Sequence record: PZ452594.1 | Length of the DNA: 64,000 bases | Source: a phage | Direction: 5' to 3' (one strand) | Shown: positions 38,369-49,130 of the stretch, piece by piece | How the letters are laid out: every line of letters starts with the position of its first letter | Numbering within the stretch: position 1 is the first letter of the stretch | Position numbers and translations under genes: made by a program | The notes under the pieces: model-generated | The model's database searches: none | What the model was told of the DNA's origin: nothing | What the model saw: only the letters and a program-made list of their open reading frames with translations

Positions 38369-39956
<1,588 letters not shown>

Positions 39957-39963
39957 AATAAAA

Positions 39964-39979
39964 TGGGCCTTGCGGCCCA
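39964..39979 (-). terminator. Hairpin/terminator after nrdB
   Basis: tgggcc ttgc ggccca 5 nt after nrdB stop, U-rich tract on minus strand. Confidence 0.6.
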
Positions 39980-39983
39980 CTCC

Positions 39984-41162
39984 TTAAAAATATTTTTTAA
40001 AACTCATCATAACTTTATCATCAACATCATTATCAATCTGTGCTACAAGGTAAGATGACAGTTCTACTTCTTGCGGTGCAGATTGAACATTATCAGAATT
40101 AAGATATTCACGAATCCAAGGATATGGATGTTTAACCGGAGCATCGGCAATTGGGCATGGAAGACCGCACTGTTTCATACGAGATACAGTTAAGTAATCA
40201 ATAAAGCTCCACATGCTATTTGTATTTAATCCAGGAACATCGCCATCTTTAAATAAATGAACTGCCCAGTCTTTTTCTTGACGGTTAACTTCCATGAAAA
40301 TATCAACTGCTTCTTGTTCACACTCTTGGGCGATTTTAACCCATTCATCACCATCAGTGCCAAGTTGAAGTTGACGAATAATATATTGGGTGCCTTTAAG
40401 GTGAAGCTGCTCATCACGAGCAATGAACTTCATAATCTTGGCATTACCTTCCATGATTTCCATGTTCTTATGGAAGTTAAAGGTACATGCGAAAGATACA
40501 TAAAAACGAATAGCTTCCAATGCGTTGATTACATGCAAACAGAGGTAAAGAGATTTCATTAGCTCATGCTTCCAATATGTCTCATGCTCAATAGCATCTT
40601 CAATAACGTCTTCGTCTGCATTAATTTCTTTTTGGTATTCGATATCAGCTTTAGCGTTTTCCCAATAACGAGTTTTAATCAGAACATCATCATAATAGCG
40701 TCCAATAGATTCGGCTCGTTTCATAATAGCTTCATCTAATACAATTTCATCAAATACCTTCGATGGATCAGTATAAAGATTTCGCATGATATGAGTATAT
40801 GAACGACTGTGAATAGTTTCACTAAAAGTCCATGTAGCAACCCATGTATCAAGGCTTGGGTCTGAAATTAATGACATAAGTACAGCAGATGGCGCGCGAC
40901 CCTGAATGCTATCTAAAAGTGATTGATACTTCAAGTTGTTAGTAAAAATATTTTGCTGATACTGAGGAAGCTTATTAAACTGTGCAGCATCCATCATCAA
41001 GTTTACTTCTTCAGGACGCCAGAAAAAACTGATCTGCCGCTCAATGAGTTCTTCAAATACTCGATGTCGTTGAATATCATATCGAGCTAAACCTAATCCA
41101 GAACCAAAGAACATCGGTTCATTCAAAACATCAACTGGATTTGTATTAAAAACTGTACTCAT
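39984..41162 (-). CDS. nrdB: Ribonucleotide reductase small subunit NrdB (392 aa), uninterrupted
   Basis: Continuous ORF with di-iron/tyrosyl radical R2 motifs; no intron interrupts the coding sequence. Confidence 0.95.
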   Translation of the reverse strand: MSTVFNTNPVDVLNEPMFFGSGLGLARYDIQRHRVFEELIERQISFFWRPEEVNLMMDAAQFNKLPQYQQNIFTNNLKYQSLLDSIQGRAPSAVLMSLISDPSLDTWVATWTFSETIHSRSYTHIMRNLYTDPSKVFDEIVLDEAIMKRAESIGRYYDDVLIKTRYWENAKADIEYQKEINADEDVIEDAIEHETYWKHELMKSLYLCLHVINALEAIRFYVSFACTFNFHKNMEIMEGNAKIMKFIARDEQLHLKGTQYIIRQLQLGTDGDEWVKIAQECEQEAVDIFMEVNRQEKDWAVHLFKDGDVPGLNTNSMWSFIDYLTVSRMKQCGLPCPIADAPVKHPYPWIREYLNSDNVQSAPQEVELSSYLVAQIDNDVDDKVMMSFKKYF

Positions 41163-41857
41163 TTAGAATCCTTAAATTTACATTTATCATAATGCCATCT
41201 TAAAGCATTGCCTTTATTAACTTTCTTACCACAGTGCGGGCAAGGTGGATACTCTGCTCCTTGTTTAGTTCTCAAAGAAATCAAATCACGGGTTTCTTTA
41301 GTATGAGGAACATCTCTTGTCGGAGAAATTGTACCATACATCGGATTAAGCACGCCGACTTTAGCAGCAGCTATATTCTTTTTAGCTTCTTCAGTTTTAG
41401 GCTTTCTCATCTTTTTCTTAGTTTCTTCGCTTTTAGCCCTTCCTTTGGTTGCCGCCGATATTTTGTGTTTGGTTTCTTCTGTTAAACGCAGACCTGTTTT
41501 CGCTTTTGACATTTTCAGTCTCGTTTCTTCAGAAATGACCGTACCTTTGCGAAATTGTGAATTTAACTTCTTTGCATGGGCATATATTTTAGAATGAACT
41601 TTATAATGACGTTTCTTAGTTCCTTTCATATTGCACATCATGAAAAATGCGAATATAACAGATTTTACCGGATAAATCTTTGATAAAATAGCATGCGCTA
41701 TAAAATGTTCTCTAGCTGTTAATTCAACTAAATTTTCTTTATCATCAGAACCTCCCATGCATTTAGGGACTATATGATGTGTCTCTTTATATTCGGATAA
41801 AGGTTCCCGAGCCTGAGCTCGGGAAATTAGGTCGTTATAGATTTTTTGATAATTCAT
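41159..41857 (-). CDS. mobE: Free-standing HNH homing endonuclease (232 aa; MobE-like position between nrdA and nrdB)
   Basis: HNH motif HHIVPKCMGGSDDKENLVELTAREHFIAH; repeated K/T-rich NUMOD-like DNA-binding modules; C-terminal CPHCGKK zinc-finger; start overlaps nrdA stop (TAATG). Confidence 0.8.
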   Translation of the reverse strand: MNYQKIYNDLISRAQAREPLSEYKETHHIVPKCMGGSDDKENLVELTAREHFIAHAILSKIYPVKSVIFAFFMMCNMKGTKKRHYKVHSKIYAHAKKLNSQFRKGTVISEETRLKMSKAKTGLRLTEETKHKISAATKGRAKSEETKKKMRKPKTEEAKKNIAAAKVGVLNPMYGTISPTRDVPHTKETRDLISLRTKQGAEYPPCPHCGKKVNKGNALRWHYDKCKFKDSK

Positions 41858-44121
41858 TACAATTTACACGCTGCACAATCGTCGGCTTTTGGAGTTTCTA
41901 TTTCATAATCATCAGTACCAGAACCATCGCGGGTATTATGATAATAGAAATTTTTTCCGCCAAAATACCAAAAATACAAAAGGTCATCAATCATTATTGA
42001 CATTGGAACCTTTCCTTTAGGGAAGATTTGGGGGTCATAGTATGTATTCGCTGAAGCTGATTGACATACCCATTTCAGCATAATAGCTACCTGCGTAAGA
42101 TAAGGTTTATTACCTTTCTTAGCTAATTTCCATGTATAATCATAGAGGTCTATGTTATGCTCAATATTGGGCACGACTTGATTAAAGGAGCCCTCTTTTG
42201 ATTCTTTAACAGAGACTGGTCCACGTGGAGGCTCGATACCGTTTGTACTGTTAGAAACTTGGGAAGATGACTCACATGGCATAAGTGCTGATAATGTGCT
42301 ATTACGGATGCCAAAGAGCTTAAGGTCTTCCCGCAGCGACGACCAGTCACAAACGTATTTTGGAGCTGCGATTTGGTCAATCTTTTTATTGTACCAGTCG
42401 ATAGGTAATTCGCCTCGAGACCAACGAGTGTCTGAATAATATTCGCAAGGTCCTTTTTCTTTGGCGATCTTAATGGATGCTTTAATGAGTCCATACTGTA
42501 ATCTCTCAAATAGTTCATGTGTTAAATCGTTAGCATCTTCATAAGAAGCAAAGTTACTTGCCAGCCAAGCTGCATAGTTAGTAACACCTACACCAAGGTT
42601 TCGACGCTTTTTAGCTTTTTCTGCTTCAGGAACTGGATATCCTTGGTAATCCAAAAGATTATCAAGAGCACGAACTTGAACTTCTGCTAATTCATTAATT
42701 TTATCTTGGTCTTGCCAATCGAAGTTATCCAGCACAAATGCAGATAACGTGCACAATCCAATTTCAGCATCAGGACTATTCACATCATTTGTTGGAATAG
42801 CAATTTCACAGCACAAGTTACTCTGACGAATAGGTGCCTTTTCACGAATAAACGGAGTGTAGTTATTCGTATTATCAATGAACTGCACATAAATCCTTGC
42901 TGTTCCTGAACGTTCAGTCATGAGCAATTCAAATAGTTCACGGGCTTTAATACGCTTTTTACGAATATTAGGGTCTTTTTCTGCTGCTTCGTATAATTCA
43001 CGGAAACGGTCTTGGTCTTTAAAATAAGAATAATAAAGCTCTCCACCCATTTCATGTGGACTGAACAAAGTAATGTAATCGTTCTTTCCAAAACGTTCCA
43101 TCATTAGATCATTCAGTTGAACACCATAATCCATATGACGAATGCGGTTTTCTTCTACGCCTTTGTTATTTTTTAAAACGAGAAGATTTTCAACTTCCAA
43201 ATGCCAAATAGGATAATAAGCAGTAGCAGCGCCGCCACGAATTCCACCCTGTGAGCATGATTTAACTGCAGTCTGAAAATGTTTCCAAAAAGGAATAACA
43301 CCAGTATGGCGTACTTCACCCATGCCAATCTTAGAACCTTCGGCACGAATCATACCAACGTTAATACCAATTCCAGCGCGTTTAGAGATATATTCAACAA
43401 TTGAAGCGGAAGCCTTATTGATAGACTTTAATGAATCACCTGCCTCAATAACAACACATGAACTAAACTGTCGAGTCGGAGTACGACAACCAGCCATAAT
43501 AGGAGTTGGCAATGAAATCTGTCGAGTAGATACTGCTTCATAAAAACGGATAACATGTTTTAATCTATCAACAGGTTCATCTTGATGCAGTGCCATTCCA
43601 ATAGTCATAAATGCAAACTGTGGAGTTTCATAAATTTGACCAGTGGTTTTATCTTTGACTAGATATTTTTCTTTTAATTGCATCGCCCCGGAATAAGTAA
43701 ATTCCATATCCCGCTCGTGCTTAATTTTTGATTCTAAAAATGTAATTTCTTCTGCTGAATATTTTGACAATAATTCAGGGTCATATTTACCTGCATTTAC
43801 ACAATAAGAAATATGGTCAATAAATGAACGTGGTTCATACTGCCCATAAACATGCTTACGAAGAGAGAACATTAAACAGCGAGCGGCTACATATTGGTAA
43901 TCAGGCTCTTCAACTGAAATAGAATTTGCAGCAGCCTTAATGACAATAGTCTGAATATCATCAGTTGTCATTCCATCACGGAGATAAGATTTAATATTTT
44001 CATATAATTCATAAGGATCTACTGATGTTCCCTCAGCTGCCCAAGATAAAACTTTAATAATTTTTTGTGGGTCAAAGCTCTGAGAAACACCACTACTTTT
44101 GATAACATTAATTAATTGCAT
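41857..44121 (-). CDS. nrdA: Ribonucleotide reductase large subunit NrdA (754 aa)
   Basis: 754 aa; N-terminal ATP-cone, class I RNR catalytic region, C-terminal CxxC tail (DDCAACKL). Confidence 0.97.
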   Translation of the reverse strand: MQLINVIKSSGVSQSFDPQKIIKVLSWAAEGTSVDPYELYENIKSYLRDGMTTDDIQTIVIKAAANSISVEEPDYQYVAARCLMFSLRKHVYGQYEPRSFIDHISYCVNAGKYDPELLSKYSAEEITFLESKIKHERDMEFTYSGAMQLKEKYLVKDKTTGQIYETPQFAFMTIGMALHQDEPVDRLKHVIRFYEAVSTRQISLPTPIMAGCRTPTRQFSSCVVIEAGDSLKSINKASASIVEYISKRAGIGINVGMIRAEGSKIGMGEVRHTGVIPFWKHFQTAVKSCSQGGIRGGAATAYYPIWHLEVENLLVLKNNKGVEENRIRHMDYGVQLNDLMMERFGKNDYITLFSPHEMGGELYYSYFKDQDRFRELYEAAEKDPNIRKKRIKARELFELLMTERSGTARIYVQFIDNTNNYTPFIREKAPIRQSNLCCEIAIPTNDVNSPDAEIGLCTLSAFVLDNFDWQDQDKINELAEVQVRALDNLLDYQGYPVPEAEKAKKRRNLGVGVTNYAAWLASNFASYEDANDLTHELFERLQYGLIKASIKIAKEKGPCEYYSDTRWSRGELPIDWYNKKIDQIAAPKYVCDWSSLREDLKLFGIRNSTLSALMPCESSSQVSNSTNGIEPPRGPVSVKESKEGSFNQVVPNIEHNIDLYDYTWKLAKKGNKPYLTQVAIMLKWVCQSASANTYYDPQIFPKGKVPMSIMIDDLLYFWYFGGKNFYYHNTRDGSGTDDYEIETPKADDCAACKL

Positions 44122-44438
44122 AAGTCCTCAACTTGAAAATCGTCTTTAAACAATCGGTTAACTATATGAGCTATTATATCACCATGACACGGCTTTGGTT
44201 TACATGTGCATCCTAGCCTCATTCCACGTAAAGGCTCTAAATGTGCTTTAGTTATTTCTCCGGATTTAATTCGACGTATAAAATCTTTTTTGAATAATTC
44301 AATGGCAGCCTCCCGGCTGCCAGCATCTTTACCGACGTAATTTCCCCAAAATGTACCACGGTGAATATTAACATCAAAGTCGGATTTGTATTTATTCACT
44401 ACCCGGCATAGACGGCCCACGCTGGAATAATTCGTCAT
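44112..44438 (-). CDS. Hypothetical protein (108 aa; nrdA.1-like)
   Basis: ORF between td and nrdA with ATG start. Confidence 0.55.
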
Positions 44439-44655
44439 ATTGTTTTTCCGTTAATACAGTAATATCATAGTAACAATCGGAAGAAGTTTTAACTGTGGAA
44501 ATTTTATTATCAAAATACTCACGAGTCATTTTATGAGTATAGTATTTTTTACCATAAATGGTAATAGGCTGTTCTGGTCCTGGAACTTCTAACTCGCTTG
44601 GGTTAGGAAGTGTAAAAAGAACAACGCCAGAAGTATCTTTAAATCGTAAAATCAT
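44392..44655 (-). CDS. Hypothetical protein (87 aa from ATG 44655; track 91 aa from TTG)
   Basis: ORF between td and nrdA; overlaps the next ORF by 47 nt. Confidence 0.5.
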
Positions 44656-44675
44656 ATATCCTCGCAATAATAAAA

Positions 44676-45536
44676 TTACACCGCCATCTTTCCTTTAATA
44701 GGAGGGTGTGATTCATAGTTGTTAAGAACAAAATTATGCGGCTTTGCGAATTGACTCAACCAAAATACCTGCGATTCTGTGTCCCATTCATCAAATTCAT
44801 CTGGAAATTTTAATTGCAATTCGCATAAATCCATAGGTTCACGACGTAAAATTTCTTTACATTGTTCTACGTGATTCATATAGATATGAGTATTACCGCC
44901 AGAAAATATCAAATCTCCCGGAATAAGATTACACATCTTAGCTACAATATGAACTAACGTAGCATATGATGCAATATTAAATGGAAGACCGAGGAAAACA
45001 TCTACCGAACGTTGATACCACTGGAGGTCAAGGTATCCGTTACGAACATTAAATTGATAGAACATATGACAAGGCGGTAATGCCATATATTTAAGTTCAG
45101 CTGGATTCCATGCAGAAACAATTTGACGCCTATCATTTGGCAGTTTTTTAATACGATCAATAACTTCTATAATTTGGTCTACACCGCCAAAATCACGCCA
45201 CTGTTTTCCATAAATTGGACCAAGTTCACCGCTATGGTATCCTAAATCTTTTGCTTGATTTTCGTAATTTTCATCCCAGACTGTTTTGCCTTGGATTAAC
45301 GAATCATGCTGAATTAATCGTAAATCATTGACATTTGTGCTTCCTGACAAAAACCATATTAACTCAGCAATGCAAGCTTTCCAGGCGAGCTTTTTAGTTG
45401 TTACTGCAGGAAAACCTTTGGTTAAATCCCAACGCAATTTAGTACCAAACAAAGCAATTGTTCCTGTGCCTGTTCGGTCATCGGTTTCATAACCATTTTC
45501 AAAAATGTCTTTAATTAAATCTTGGTATTGTTTCAT
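44676..45536 (-). CDS. td: Thymidylate synthase (286 aa), uninterrupted
   Basis: Continuous 286-aa ORF with active-site PPCH motif ([11 protein letters not shown]) and DRR ([12 protein letters not shown]); no intron. Confidence 0.97.
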
Positions 45537-45580: not shown

Positions 45581-45928
45581 TCAATACGGTTTAGCATCAA
45601 ATTTTCTCTCAATTTCAGGCGTGAAATATAATTCTTTACCGCGTTTGGAAAAACGACCAATAATATGATAATTATTCTCATCAAACGTGATATTACCAAT
45701 ATTCATAGCTTTCAACCAAATATCGATATTTCTATCCAGCTTTATGTCAAAATTCCAGTACGGAGAACTATTACCGAAAATACTGCAAGCGGATTCAGTG
45801 AAACAACTGCTATAAATCTTGTCCTTAGGAACTACTAATTGATAGACACCTTTAATAAACTGAGGACCCTGCCATTTTGGTTGTTTCGTGTCTTTTTCTA
45901 ATAGAATAGGGTAATAATTAAAATTCAT
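45581..45928 (-). CDS. Hypothetical protein (115 aa from ATG; track 119 aa from GTG) inserted between frd and td
   Basis: ORF fills a 412-bp interval between frd stop and td start; no recognisable motif. Confidence 0.55.
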   Translation of the reverse strand: MNFNYYPILLEKDTKQPKWQGPQFIKGVYQLVVPKDKIYSSCFTESACSIFGNSSPYWNFDIKLDRNIDIWLKAMNIGNITFDENNYHIIGRFSKRGKELYFTPEIERKFDAKPY

Positions 45929-45948
45929 ATTTTCCGCCACGCGTTATT

Positions 45949-46771
<823 letters not shown>

Positions 46772-48221: not shown

Positions 48222-49130
48222 TTAAAGGTCATTCAAAAGGTCATCCAGGTCCGTGTCATCAGCACTAGATGAACTACCAGAGCTTGAGCTCATAAAATCA
48301 TCTTCAGTTTTTGTATTGAAGTCATCAACATTGAATGCATCCAAATCATCAGCAACTTTATCAGCTTTCTTAGCAGCAGTTGCAGCGGCACCACCCATAG
48401 CAGCAGTTCCCATAACTTGGCTGAACTTAGTGCTCAGTTCTTCAAATGATTTGAATTTATCTTTAGAAGTCATTTCAGAAAGGTCAACCATTTGTTCGAA
48501 CAGTTCTTTCTGGAAAGATTCATCATCAATGTTTGGAATCGCAGATTGATTCAGGAATTTAGATTCATCGTAGTTACTAAATCCGGAAACTTGTTTAACT
48601 TTCAGTACAAAGTTAGCACCTTCCCACGGACAAGTTACATCAACCGGAGTTTCACCCATTTCAACATCAACTGCAATCATTGCATTGATTTTATCCCAGA
48701 TTTTCTTACCAAAACGGTATTTAAATACTTTACCTTCGTTTTCTGGAGCAGCTGGGTCTTTTACTACAAGAATGTTAGCCCAGTAAGAAGTTTTACGTTT
48801 AACAAGACTGTACTCTTTATTGTCAGTGTTGTACAGATCATTTTTACTGATGTATTGACATACTGGGCAAGAATCGTAATCACCGTGGGTAGATGAACAG
48901 TTTTCAATATACCATTTACCATTTTTCTTGAAACCGTGATTTACAAGAATTGCGAATGGTGCTTGTTCATCATTTTTAGACGGAAGAAAACGAATTACTG
49001 CTTGACCGTTACCCGCATTGTCGAGTTTCAGTTTCCACTCGCCTTTATCTTCAGAAGAAAAACCACCTTTATTTCCAGCCAGTTTAGCCATTTGTGCAGC
49101 GAGTTCAGCAGTAGATTTACGTTTAAACAT
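48222..49130 (-). CDS. 32: Single-stranded DNA-binding protein gp32 (302 aa)
   Basis: N-terminus [17 protein letters not shown], zinc-binding H/C cluster, acidic Ser/Asp-rich C-terminus; A/U-rich leader upstream; strong terminator downstream. Confidence 0.97.

Follow-up and report, generated by a model that had tools for sequence, protein, structure and literature searches.

In a T4-like phage of the genus Tequatrovirus (sequence record PZ452594.1), the 232-aa ORF lying between nrdA and nrdB is, judged by its sequence, an intact ortholog of T4 mobE and in effect the same allele. In the window, that is, the whole stretch of 64,000 nucleotides that was analysed, it is highly probable that the locus as a whole is best explained by an intact T4-type mobE, active in homing as in T4, together with intron-less td and nrdB genes as likely recipients. 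This is well-known biology, and deposited genomes already contain the arrangement in full; the locus is a textbook example of a selfish homing endonuclease interlaced with essential genes of nucleotide metabolism and has little import beyond correct annotation.

Layout of the locus and identity of mobE

The genes nrdB, mobE, nrdA and td are all carried on the minus strand, with the coordinates that the preliminary description had assigned to them (Table 1), and the free-standing mobE ORF occupies the interval between nrdA and nrdB as in T4 and T6. The td protein spans the full Pfam Thymidylat_synt model (1-266 of 266, E = 4e-95), and the two conserved small genes of the td-nrdA interval, nrdA.1 and nrdA.2 (44112..44667), are annotated likewise in T4 and T6. 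Reading of the sequence revealed a 1-nt UAAUG overlap at the nrdA/mobE junction (...TTG TAA TGA...), the sequence at the mobE start and nrdA stop being TTGTAATGAAT, and a 4-nt ATGA overlap at the mobE/nrdB junction (...AAA TGA GT...). The UAAUGA arrangement of the nrdA stop and mobE start has a precedent in T4 (PMC2988022) and suggests that translation of mobE may be coupled to that of nrdA.

Table 1. Positions of genes, motifs and sites at the nrd-td locus of the window
Feature	Position	Strand	Remarks
nrdB	39984..41162	-	392 aa, 1179 bp; ribonucleotide reductase small subunit; Pfam Ribonuc_red_sm; intron-less
Empty nrdB intron site	40486..40487	-	after nrdB nt 676; ...TATGTATCTTTCGCAT^GTACCTTTAAC...
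T4-like tract	40717..41955	-	~1.24 kb: 3'-terminal 98 nt of nrdA, whole mobE, 5'-terminal ~446 nt of nrdB
Polymorphic block around the MobE nick position	41032..41049	-	nrdB nt 114-131; nick nt 122-126 = window 41041-41037
mobE	41159..41857	-	232 aa, 699 bp; free-standing HNH homing (nicking) endonuclease gene, T4-type allele
C-terminal CPHC...H...C motif	41180..41242	-	mobE aa 206-226
nrdB promoter	41186..41209	-	within mobE 3' end; -35-like AATGCTT, -10 TATGAT
NUMOD3-type repeats	41363..41542	-	mobE aa ~106-165: SEETRLKMSKAKTG / TEETKHKISAATKG / SEETKKKMRKPKT / EEAKKNIAAAKVG; visible in translation
HNH catalytic motif	41693..41779	-	mobE aa 27-55, HHIVPKCMGGSDDKENLVELTAREHFIAH
Predicted terminator hairpin	41804..41825	-	within mobE 5' end; 9-bp stem, 4-nt loop
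nrdA	41857..44121	-	754 aa, single ORF; ribonucleotide reductase large subunit; stop overlaps mobE start (UAAUGA)
nrdA.1	44112-44438	-	DUF4326; conserved small gene, td-nrdA interval
nrdA.2	44392-44667	-	DUF5496; conserved small gene, td-nrdA interval
td	44676..45536	-	286 aa, 861 bp; thymidylate synthase; intron-less
Empty td intron site with I-TevI homing-site flanks (-27..+20)	44968..45014	-	insertion between 44988 and 44987

A 232-aa HNH ORF with NUMOD repeats and overlapping start and stop codons had been described between nrdA and nrdB, in the position of T4 mobE; ORF, Pfam and sequence data agree on this, and beyond position the ORF corresponds to the T4 mobE allele itself. It had 99.4% nucleotide identity over 699 bp to the gene annotated as mobE in re-sequenced T4 genomes (T4T = HM137666, KJ477684 and others), and base-by-base alignment with the T4 reference NC_000866 revealed only 4 substitutions plus 2 extra bases in the reference. 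Because of these two extra bases, which are absent from other T4 records, the reference (NC_000866/AF158101) shows a 'mobE' of 141 aa plus 'nrdB.1'; the 'mobE + nrdB.1' annotation propagated from it is thus a frameshift split of one 232-aa gene.

Searches with the mobE protein detected Pfam HNH at aa 21-44 (23.3 bits; cut-off 21.4) and Pfam NUMOD3 with its best stretch at aa 106-122 (46 bits; cut-off 20.4), and assigned it to PHROG 655, 'homing endonuclease' (E = 2.9e-65). No solved structure gave more than a weak match, the best being to a group II intron maturase HNH motif (E = 0.046), and the NCBIfam search gave no match. Alignment of seven MobE sequences (that of mobE DNA took in T4, T6, ECO4 and CP) revealed that H27, H28, N42, H51 and H55 of the HNH motif were invariant. 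Comparison with T4 MobE, as proposed earlier, showed that every invariant HNH residue is kept, so that the loss of HNH residues expected of a degenerate pseudogene is not seen; the two substitutions in this region, I30V and R32K, are conservative and are found in phage mogra too, but may affect activity. The NUMOD3-type repeats presumably form a DNA-binding linker, and the T4-type protein (232 aa) differs from the T6-type one (213 aa) in the stretch 56-149, which overlaps the first of these repeats. In the C-terminal motif, C206, H208, C209, H222 and C226 were invariant in both allele types, and this Cys/His motif is a putative zinc-binding DNA-recognition module.

Cutting by MobE has never been demonstrated in vitro, and Wilson and Edgell raised the possibility that it may instead regulate another nuclease (PMC2790892). 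That MobE is a DNA-binding or regulatory factor directing another phage nuclease to nrdB is, in our view, highly improbable, since its HNH motif is intact and conserved, deletion of residues 33-62 of T4 MobE abolished nicking and lowered inheritance, and related HNH homing enzymes are known nickases (PMC2790892). A MobE acting itself as the nuclease is the reading preferred here.

Regulatory elements within mobE and homing into nrdB

The hairpin near the start of mobE had a folding energy of -16.7 kcal/mol (z = -3.48) and exactly matched the stem_loop annotated in T4 record J03968. Its T4 counterpart terminates weakly, in about 30-50% of cases (PMC2790892), and, by analogy, the hairpin would terminate transcription here. 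A consensus terminator scan did not flag it because its T-tract is short. It was also noticed that the short T-tract fits the 'weak terminator' of T4. A middle promoter for nrdB is known to sit in the mobE 3' region (PMC2790892), and the promoter elements in the window exactly matched those annotated in T4 record X04140. Directly upstream of mobE, no sigma-70-like site was found on the minus strand, the only one being weak and located inside nrdA (41963-41935). By sequence identity to the T4 gene, mobE would have no promoter of its own and would be expressed from the nrdA transcript, with its 5' hairpin attenuating read-through, as shown for T4, and its 3' end supplying the promoter needed by nrdB.

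Such an organization can also be read as 'promoter addiction' of nrdB, with mobE retained as a no longer mobile passenger and the endonuclease inactive or irrelevant: the nrdB promoter elements lie inside the mobE ORF, a placement that according to Wilson and Edgell selects against mobE deletion (PMC2790892), and mobE expression is lowered by the 5' hairpin. We consider this very unlikely, since the 232-codon frame is fully open and 99.4% identical to the experimentally mobile T4 allele, selection on the MobE protein is indicated by HNH and C-terminal Cys/His residues that do not vary at all between alleles about 25% divergent at other positions, and near-identical cassettes are found in two genera (Tequatrovirus and Mosigvirus), pointing to recent mobility.

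For a mobE that is still mobile, as we prefer, the T4 experiments provide the expectation. When T4 was crossed with T2, T4 mobE showed super-Mendelian inheritance, and nt 122-126 of T2 nrdB were mapped as the position of a nick that required MobE and its HNH motif and was accompanied by co-conversion; only a nick was detected (PMC2790892). By analogy, the window mobE would be expected to nick nrdB and to be inherited in the same super-Mendelian manner. In the immunity model, host nrdB genes carry substitutions at the nick site relative to mobE-less phages (PMC2790892). Codons 41-45 of the window nrdB are GAG CGG CAG ATC AGT, identical to T4, compared with GAA AAG CAG TTG TCA in T2, which lacks mobE and is nicked, and GAG AAA TCT TTA TCA in phages with T6-type mobE; codon 42, at the nick site, is CGG in the window and T4 and AAG in T2. 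The nick-site allele of the window occurred in 27 database records, nearly all of them carriers of T4-type mobE, and with this allele the window nrdB is presumed to be self-immune to MobE. Recombinational repair from the window phage genome would copy mobE and flanking markers into a rival phage, which would constitute homing and be seen genetically as marker exclusion, while the phage's own nrdB would escape nicking because of the target-site substitutions. The role of donor or substrate in homing that the preliminary description had proposed is supported by its match to the published T4 experiments. For co-infection with relatives, the locus would predict how nrd- and td-region markers are inherited, a matter of relevance for phage cocktails and recombination engineering.

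Within the T4-like tract, 18 of 1239 nt differed from T4, two of these differences being the extra bases of the T4 reference. Just outside, identity to T4 was 89% in nrdA (nt 2001-2166) and 65% in nrdB (nt 447-645); the left tract edge is not sharp, nrdA being 97% T4-like further upstream. The tract of ~1.24 kb is a candidate co-conversion tract and suggests that mobE may have entered this backbone by homing. T-even genomes are generally mosaic, and ordinary recombination is an alternative origin for the tract. The divergent nrdB patch at 40518-40716 was considered as an unusual feature and rejected, as it represents the common RB27/PE37-type allele.

In mogra (Mosigvirus), the cassette in common with the window stops exactly behind nrdB codon 42 (nt 126), where the nick was mapped, and that of KAW3E185 extends ~20 nt beyond the end in mogra, to about nt 147. 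It is possible, albeit tentatively proposed, that the ends of the T4-type mobE cassettes (window, ~41955 to 40717; mogra; KAW3E185; ECO4) record homing events in the wild, with one end at or a few bases past the nick, and that the T4- and T6-type alleles, each with its own nrdB codon 42-45 variant, might be two specificity or immunity types attacking each other's hosts. If this were true, the cassette ends would support, at the level of populations, a homing process that starts from the nick and in which co-conversion towards nrdB is very short. Natural recombination junctions at the position where MobE nicking was mapped by experiment can be found in database phages.

Empty intron sites in td and nrdB

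As described previously, td and nrdB are uninterrupted; both are continuous ORFs, colinear with the T4 exons after splicing and with their T2 counterparts, which have no intron (T2 nrdB, 1179 bp). Group I introns of the T4 type (about 1 kb in td; 0.6-1.1 kb in nrdB) are absent from the canonical sites in the window. An Rfam search gave no intron match in the window, but none either in the T4 locus, which has both introns, and the absence in the window rests on ORFs and alignments. The preliminary description had set this absence against T4; the absence itself stands, but it is no departure from the norm, the intron-less state of td and nrdB being the common (majority) state in T-even phages and T4 the exception. 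The td intron was found in about 197 records and the nrdB intron in 118 (the query for the latter consisted of 586 nt of intron and 12 nt of exon, with a negligible effect on the count), versus about 508 Tequatrovirus-level records. The combination of T4-type mobE with intron-less td and nrdB also occurs in phage mogra, and that of T6-type mobE with intron-less td and nrdB in many phages, e.g. vB_Eco_CP.

Alignment with the intron-containing T4 alleles, as had been suggested, located both insertion sites and found them intact. For td, a scan of the T4 and T6 genes for the splice point of maximum identity placed the intron after td nt 549, with ends consistent with the known junction; a MAFFT alignment of td had put the intron gap at nt 644 and was rejected in favor of this splice point. 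Cleavage by I-TevI takes place at 23 and 25 nt on the upstream side of the td insertion site (PMC2988022), and the td site in the window, CAACGTTCGGTAGATGTTTTCCTCGGT^CTTCCATTTAATATTGCATCA, retains the I-TevI CAACG cleavage motif at -27..-23. Compared with the exon junction of T4, this site had 7 changes, all synonymous; it was identical to vB_Eco_CP over -27..+20 and shared identical changes with T2 at -5, -3, +3, +6 and +18; at -21, the window (T) and T2 (A) both differ from T4, by different bases. The T4 nrdB splice point, at gene nt 664, corresponds to alignment column 676 (12-nt indel), and T4 has ...TTTTGCGT (598-nt intron) GTACC... at this site. Within -45..+30, the nrdB insertion site of the window differs from that of T2 by one base, which is synonymous.

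Precise secondary loss of the introns in a T4-derived lineage, as opposed to never-invaded or replaced alleles, would be compatible with the T4-like mobE and 5' part of nrdB, and intron-lacking mobE+ progeny do arise in T4 x T2 crosses (PMC2790892). Nevertheless, we regard such a loss as extremely improbable, because the exon flanks of both empty sites match intron-less lineages and not intron-bearing exons: td positions -5, -3 and +3 are of the T2/CP type, not the T4/T6 type, nrdB positions -2 and -29 to -41 are of the T2 type, not the T4/ELT1 type, the 200 nt upstream of the nrdB site are of the RB27/PE37 type, and co-conversion tracts of the T4 type are absent next to the empty sites. For nrdB, a crossover in the interval from mobE to the insertion site accounts for the present state, with no loss needed.

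Never-invaded or replaced alleles are the preferred reading. A recipient role in intron homing is plausible. The window genome would probably accept the td intron and its I-TevI, because its insertion sites are intact and close to those of T2, a proven recipient in the T4 x T2 cross. Uptake of the RB3-type nrdB intron with I-TevIII would be less certain than that of the td intron, because the proven uptake of the nrdB intron by T2 depended on MobE and the nick site of the window is T4-type. Given that the window sites resemble those of T2 and that I-TevI is known to be tolerant, they may be cleaved by I-TevI and I-TevIII.

Comparison with known systems

The closest counterpart is the T4 MobE system (Wilson and Edgell 2009, PMC2790892; e.g. 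HM137666), which is like the window in the slot occupied, the 699-bp length, the overlaps, the hairpin, the nrdB promoter and the nick-site allele, and whose mobE differs at four nucleotides, with two amino-acid changes (I30V, R32K) as the result. Unlike the window, T4 carries an nrdB intron with a defunct I-TevIII downstream and a td intron with I-TevI. MobE of the T6 type (213 aa; T6, vB_Eco_CP, slur phages, LZ7; about 110 records) occupies the same slot and has the same N-terminal HNH region (aa 1-55) and C-terminal region (aa 150-232), whereas its central linker is replaced and 19 aa shorter, overall amino-acid identity to the window protein is 71-77%, and its gene is linked to the other nrdB codon 42-45 allele, AAA TCT TTA TCA. 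The MobE of Escherichia phage mogra (Mosigvirus, MN850579) is of the T4 type and 1 aa from that of the window, but the mogra backbone reaches just about 70-85% identity, the cassette in common is short, running from window 41871 to ~41037, and, unlike the window, mogra has no ORF between frd and td.

The MobE of Aeromonas phage Aeh1 is likewise a free-standing Mob-type HNH endonuclease associated with nrd genes (PMC2988022; PMC3045599); the insertion in Aeh1 splits nrdA itself, whereas nrdA in the window is a single 754-aa ORF. I-TevIII (RB3/ELT1-type, HNH) and I-TevI (GIY-YIG) are homing endonucleases targeting nrdB and td, respectively (PMC2988022). Both are encoded by group I introns, and the window has just their empty target sites; moreover, I-TevIII acts as a dimer and breaks both DNA strands (PMC2988022), whereas for MobE nothing but a nick was detected (PMC2790892).

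Gene order and the empty intron sites of td and nrdB

The window phage was a Tequatrovirus (T4-like), and a 7.1-kb query over the region matched 879 phage records, the best of which (ECO4, T6, vB_Eco_CP and others) were 95-96% identical. In the slot between frd and td lay a 119-aa ORF that had no match in Pfam or NCBIfam. A 348-bp version of it is found in T2, T6, ECO4 and vB_Eco_CP, and in ELT1 the slot is occupied by a different ORF of 69 aa. It is empty in phage mogra, and also in T4 owing to the overlap of frd with td. The junction between frd and td is a slot for variable insertions.

Genes of the region, all on the minus strand, in transcription order
Gene	Position	Strand	Assignment
gene 32	48222-49130	minus	
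frd	45949-46530	minus	
119-aa ORF	45581-45940	minus	PHROG 1928 (function unknown)
td	44676-45536	minus	Pfam Thymidylat_synt, full model, E = 4e-95
nrdA.2	44392-44667	minus	
nrdA.1	44112-44438	minus	
nrdA	41857-44121	minus	three Pfam NrdA domains
232-aa HNH ORF (mobE)	41159-41857	minus	Pfam HNH + NUMOD3, PHROG 655
nrdB	39984-41162	minus	Pfam Ribonuc_red_sm
denA	39546-39980	minus	
rnlA	after denA	minus	

The preliminary description had td and nrdB uninterrupted, and alignment with the T4 genes bore this out by locating both empty insertion sites. When the td genes of T4 and T6 were spliced at the point of highest identity to the window, the ~1017-nt td intron fell after td nt 549, between 44988 and 44987, where the window reads CAACGTTCGGTAGATGTTTTCCTCGGT^CTTCCATTTAATATTGCATCA. 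The CAACG motif was intact at -27 to -23 of this site; I-TevI, the endonuclease of the td intron, cleaves here, at 23 and 25 nt upstream of the insertion point (PMC2988022). The window differed from the T4 exon junction at 7 positions, all synonymous, 5 of them being changes identical to those in T2; when T2 is crossed with T4, its td undergoes efficient conversion (I-TevI/input about 2.1; PMC2790892). The T4 nrdB intron (598 nt) follows T4 nt 664, equivalent to window nrdB nt 676 (40487|40486), and here the window differed from T2 by 1 base within -45 to +30. An Rfam scan of the window detected no intron; since Rfam at gathering threshold also missed the true ORF-containing td and nrdB group I introns of the whole T4 locus (L004, NC_000866), this result was not counted as evidence, and a negative Rfam result is unusable for excluding such introns.

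It was also observed that a ~100-nt segment at td nt ~700-800 (window ~44737-44837) was T6-type (98% identical), whereas ungapped comparison with T4 and T2 gave only 36% identity. Here the C-terminal part of thymidylate synthase carries a replaced, mosaic segment.

Identity of the HNH ORF with T4 mobE

The 232-aa ORF matched Pfam HNH (23.3 bits, cut-off 21.4) and NUMOD3 (46 bits), and fell into PHROG family 655, "homing endonuclease" (E = 2.9e-65). At its start (TTG-TAA-TGA) one A was common to the nrdA stop and the ORF start, and at its end (AAA-TGA-GT) ATGA was common to the ORF stop and the nrdB start. Nucleotide alignment with the nrdA-nrdB region of the T4 reference (L004 5717-6417, corresponding to window 41159-41857) revealed near identity, except that NC_000866 has two additional single bases (A in TGTCAAAAAGC, C in GAAGAAACCTAAG), which cause two frame shifts and the annotation of "mobE" (141 aa) and "nrdB.1" (83 aa). 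Both bases were missing in the window and in all re-sequenced T4 genomes (T4T HM137666, KJ477684-6, MT984581, OZ209023 and others), which, like RB55 and RB59, have the same 699-bp span with a single mobE annotated, 99.4% identical to the window ORF. Therefore, real T4 MobE is the same 232-aa protein, and the reference "mobE + nrdB.1" is a frameshift split of one gene, a mildly new point. As coordinates, Pfam, PHROG and junctions agreed, the earlier observation of an HNH ORF with NUMOD repeats, overlapping nrdA and nrdB at the T4 mobE position, was confirmed in every detail.

Across 7 aligned MobE proteins, the HNH residues (H27, H28, N42, H51, H55) and a Cys/His motif near the C terminus (C206, H208, C209, H222, C226) were invariant; relative to frame-corrected T4 MobE, the window protein had the conservative changes I30V and R32K. 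Two alleles were distinguished, T4-type (232 aa) and T6-type (213 aa; window 41159-41857 versus L001, phage T6, 6263-6904), in which aa 1-55 (HNH domain) and the last 83 aa are shared, whereas the linkers in the centre, at the first NUMOD3 repeats, are unrelated.

T4 mobE is without a promoter and co-transcribed with nrdA, has a weak-terminator hairpin about 27 nt after its AUG and contains the nrdB middle promoter within its 3' end (Wilson & Edgell, PMC2790892). In the window, a hairpin at 41804-41825 (9-bp stem, 4-nt loop, -16.7 kcal/mol, z = -3.5) had exactly the sequence of the stem_loop feature in T4 record J03968, the promoter elements of T4 record X04140 (AATGCTT ... TATGAT) matched exactly at 41186-41209, and the UAAUGA overlap, proposed to mediate translational coupling (PMC2988022), was present. 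At the sequence level, the regulatory features are those published for T4 mobE.

The nick site and the boundaries of T4-like sequence

In T2 nrdB, MobE-dependent nicking maps to nt 122-126; nrdB codon 42 reads AAG in every phage lacking mobE and varies among mobE carriers (PMC2790892). Window nrdB codons 41-45 (GAG CGG CAG ATC AGT) were identical to those of T4, in contrast to GAA AAG CAG TTG TCA in T2 and GAG AAA TCT TTA TCA in carriers of T6-type mobE; each mobE allele was linked to its own codon 42-45 variant. A 78-nt query of the nick region retrieved 27 database records, nearly all T4-type mobE carriers, one exception being 215Ecol030PP, with the T4-type nick-site allele and an nrdB intron but without mobE. 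The nrdA-nrdB spacer of 215Ecol030PP was 51 nt; in Salmonella phage Manna, nrdA was annotated as two pieces, the second ORF (530 aa) abutting the nrdB start.

Identity to T4 was 96.9-99.1% over three adjoining segments, the final 98 nt of nrdA, mobE and nrdB nt 5-446, whereas nrdA nt 2001-2166, directly upstream, was only 89% identical and resembled vB_Eco_CP, and nrdB nt 447-645 (40518-40716), directly downstream, was 65% identical. In this latter patch the window carried a common allele (174 records at 95-99%), with 98.5% identity to phages of the RB27/PE37 type. The ~1.24-kb T4-like tract (about 41955 to 40717) contained the nick site and stopped before the intron insertion site, the configuration of "mobE+ I-TevIII-" recombinants from T4 x T2 crosses (PMC2790892). 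Since T-even genomes are mosaic in general, the tract is consistent with, but no proof of, an origin by homing.

Boundaries were compared among mogra (L006, 5001-5825), KAW3E185 (L008) and window 41871-41015. Mogra is a Mosigvirus with a backbone only about 70-85% identical to the window, but its cassette was 96-100% identical from ~14 nt ahead of the mobE start codon through nrdB nt 126, diverging at codon 43, exactly at the mapped nick; it is a clearer case than the window tract for a trace of mobE arrival. In KAW3E185, also a Mosigvirus, the junction lay ~20 nt beyond that of mogra, at about nrdB nt 147. The natural boundaries of T4-type mobE cassettes in these database phages, lying at or just past the mapped nick site, coincide with it, which is also mildly new.

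Frequency of the arrangement and comparison with T4

In the phage collection, about 508 records matched nrdA at >=90% identity, 197 the T4 td intron and 118 the nrdB intron (both at >=80% coverage, some nrdB intron matches being outside the genus), 131 had any mobE and 20 a full-length T4-type mobE. By these counts, td and nrdB mostly lack introns, and it is T4 that is exceptional. T4-type mobE occurred in all four intron combinations: both introns (T4, ELT1), td only (ECO4), nrdB only (KAW3E185) and neither (mogra and the window); T6-type mobE without introns was frequent (e.g. vB_Eco_CP, slur phages).

The earlier interpretation of the locus is supported. By analogy to the T4 experiments, given the near-identity of coding and regulatory sequences, we infer that MobE of the window phage would nick a rival's nrdB, that recombinational repair would then copy mobE into the rival, and that its own nrdB would be protected by target-site polymorphism. 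The system itself has already been characterised, and its configuration here is a common one.
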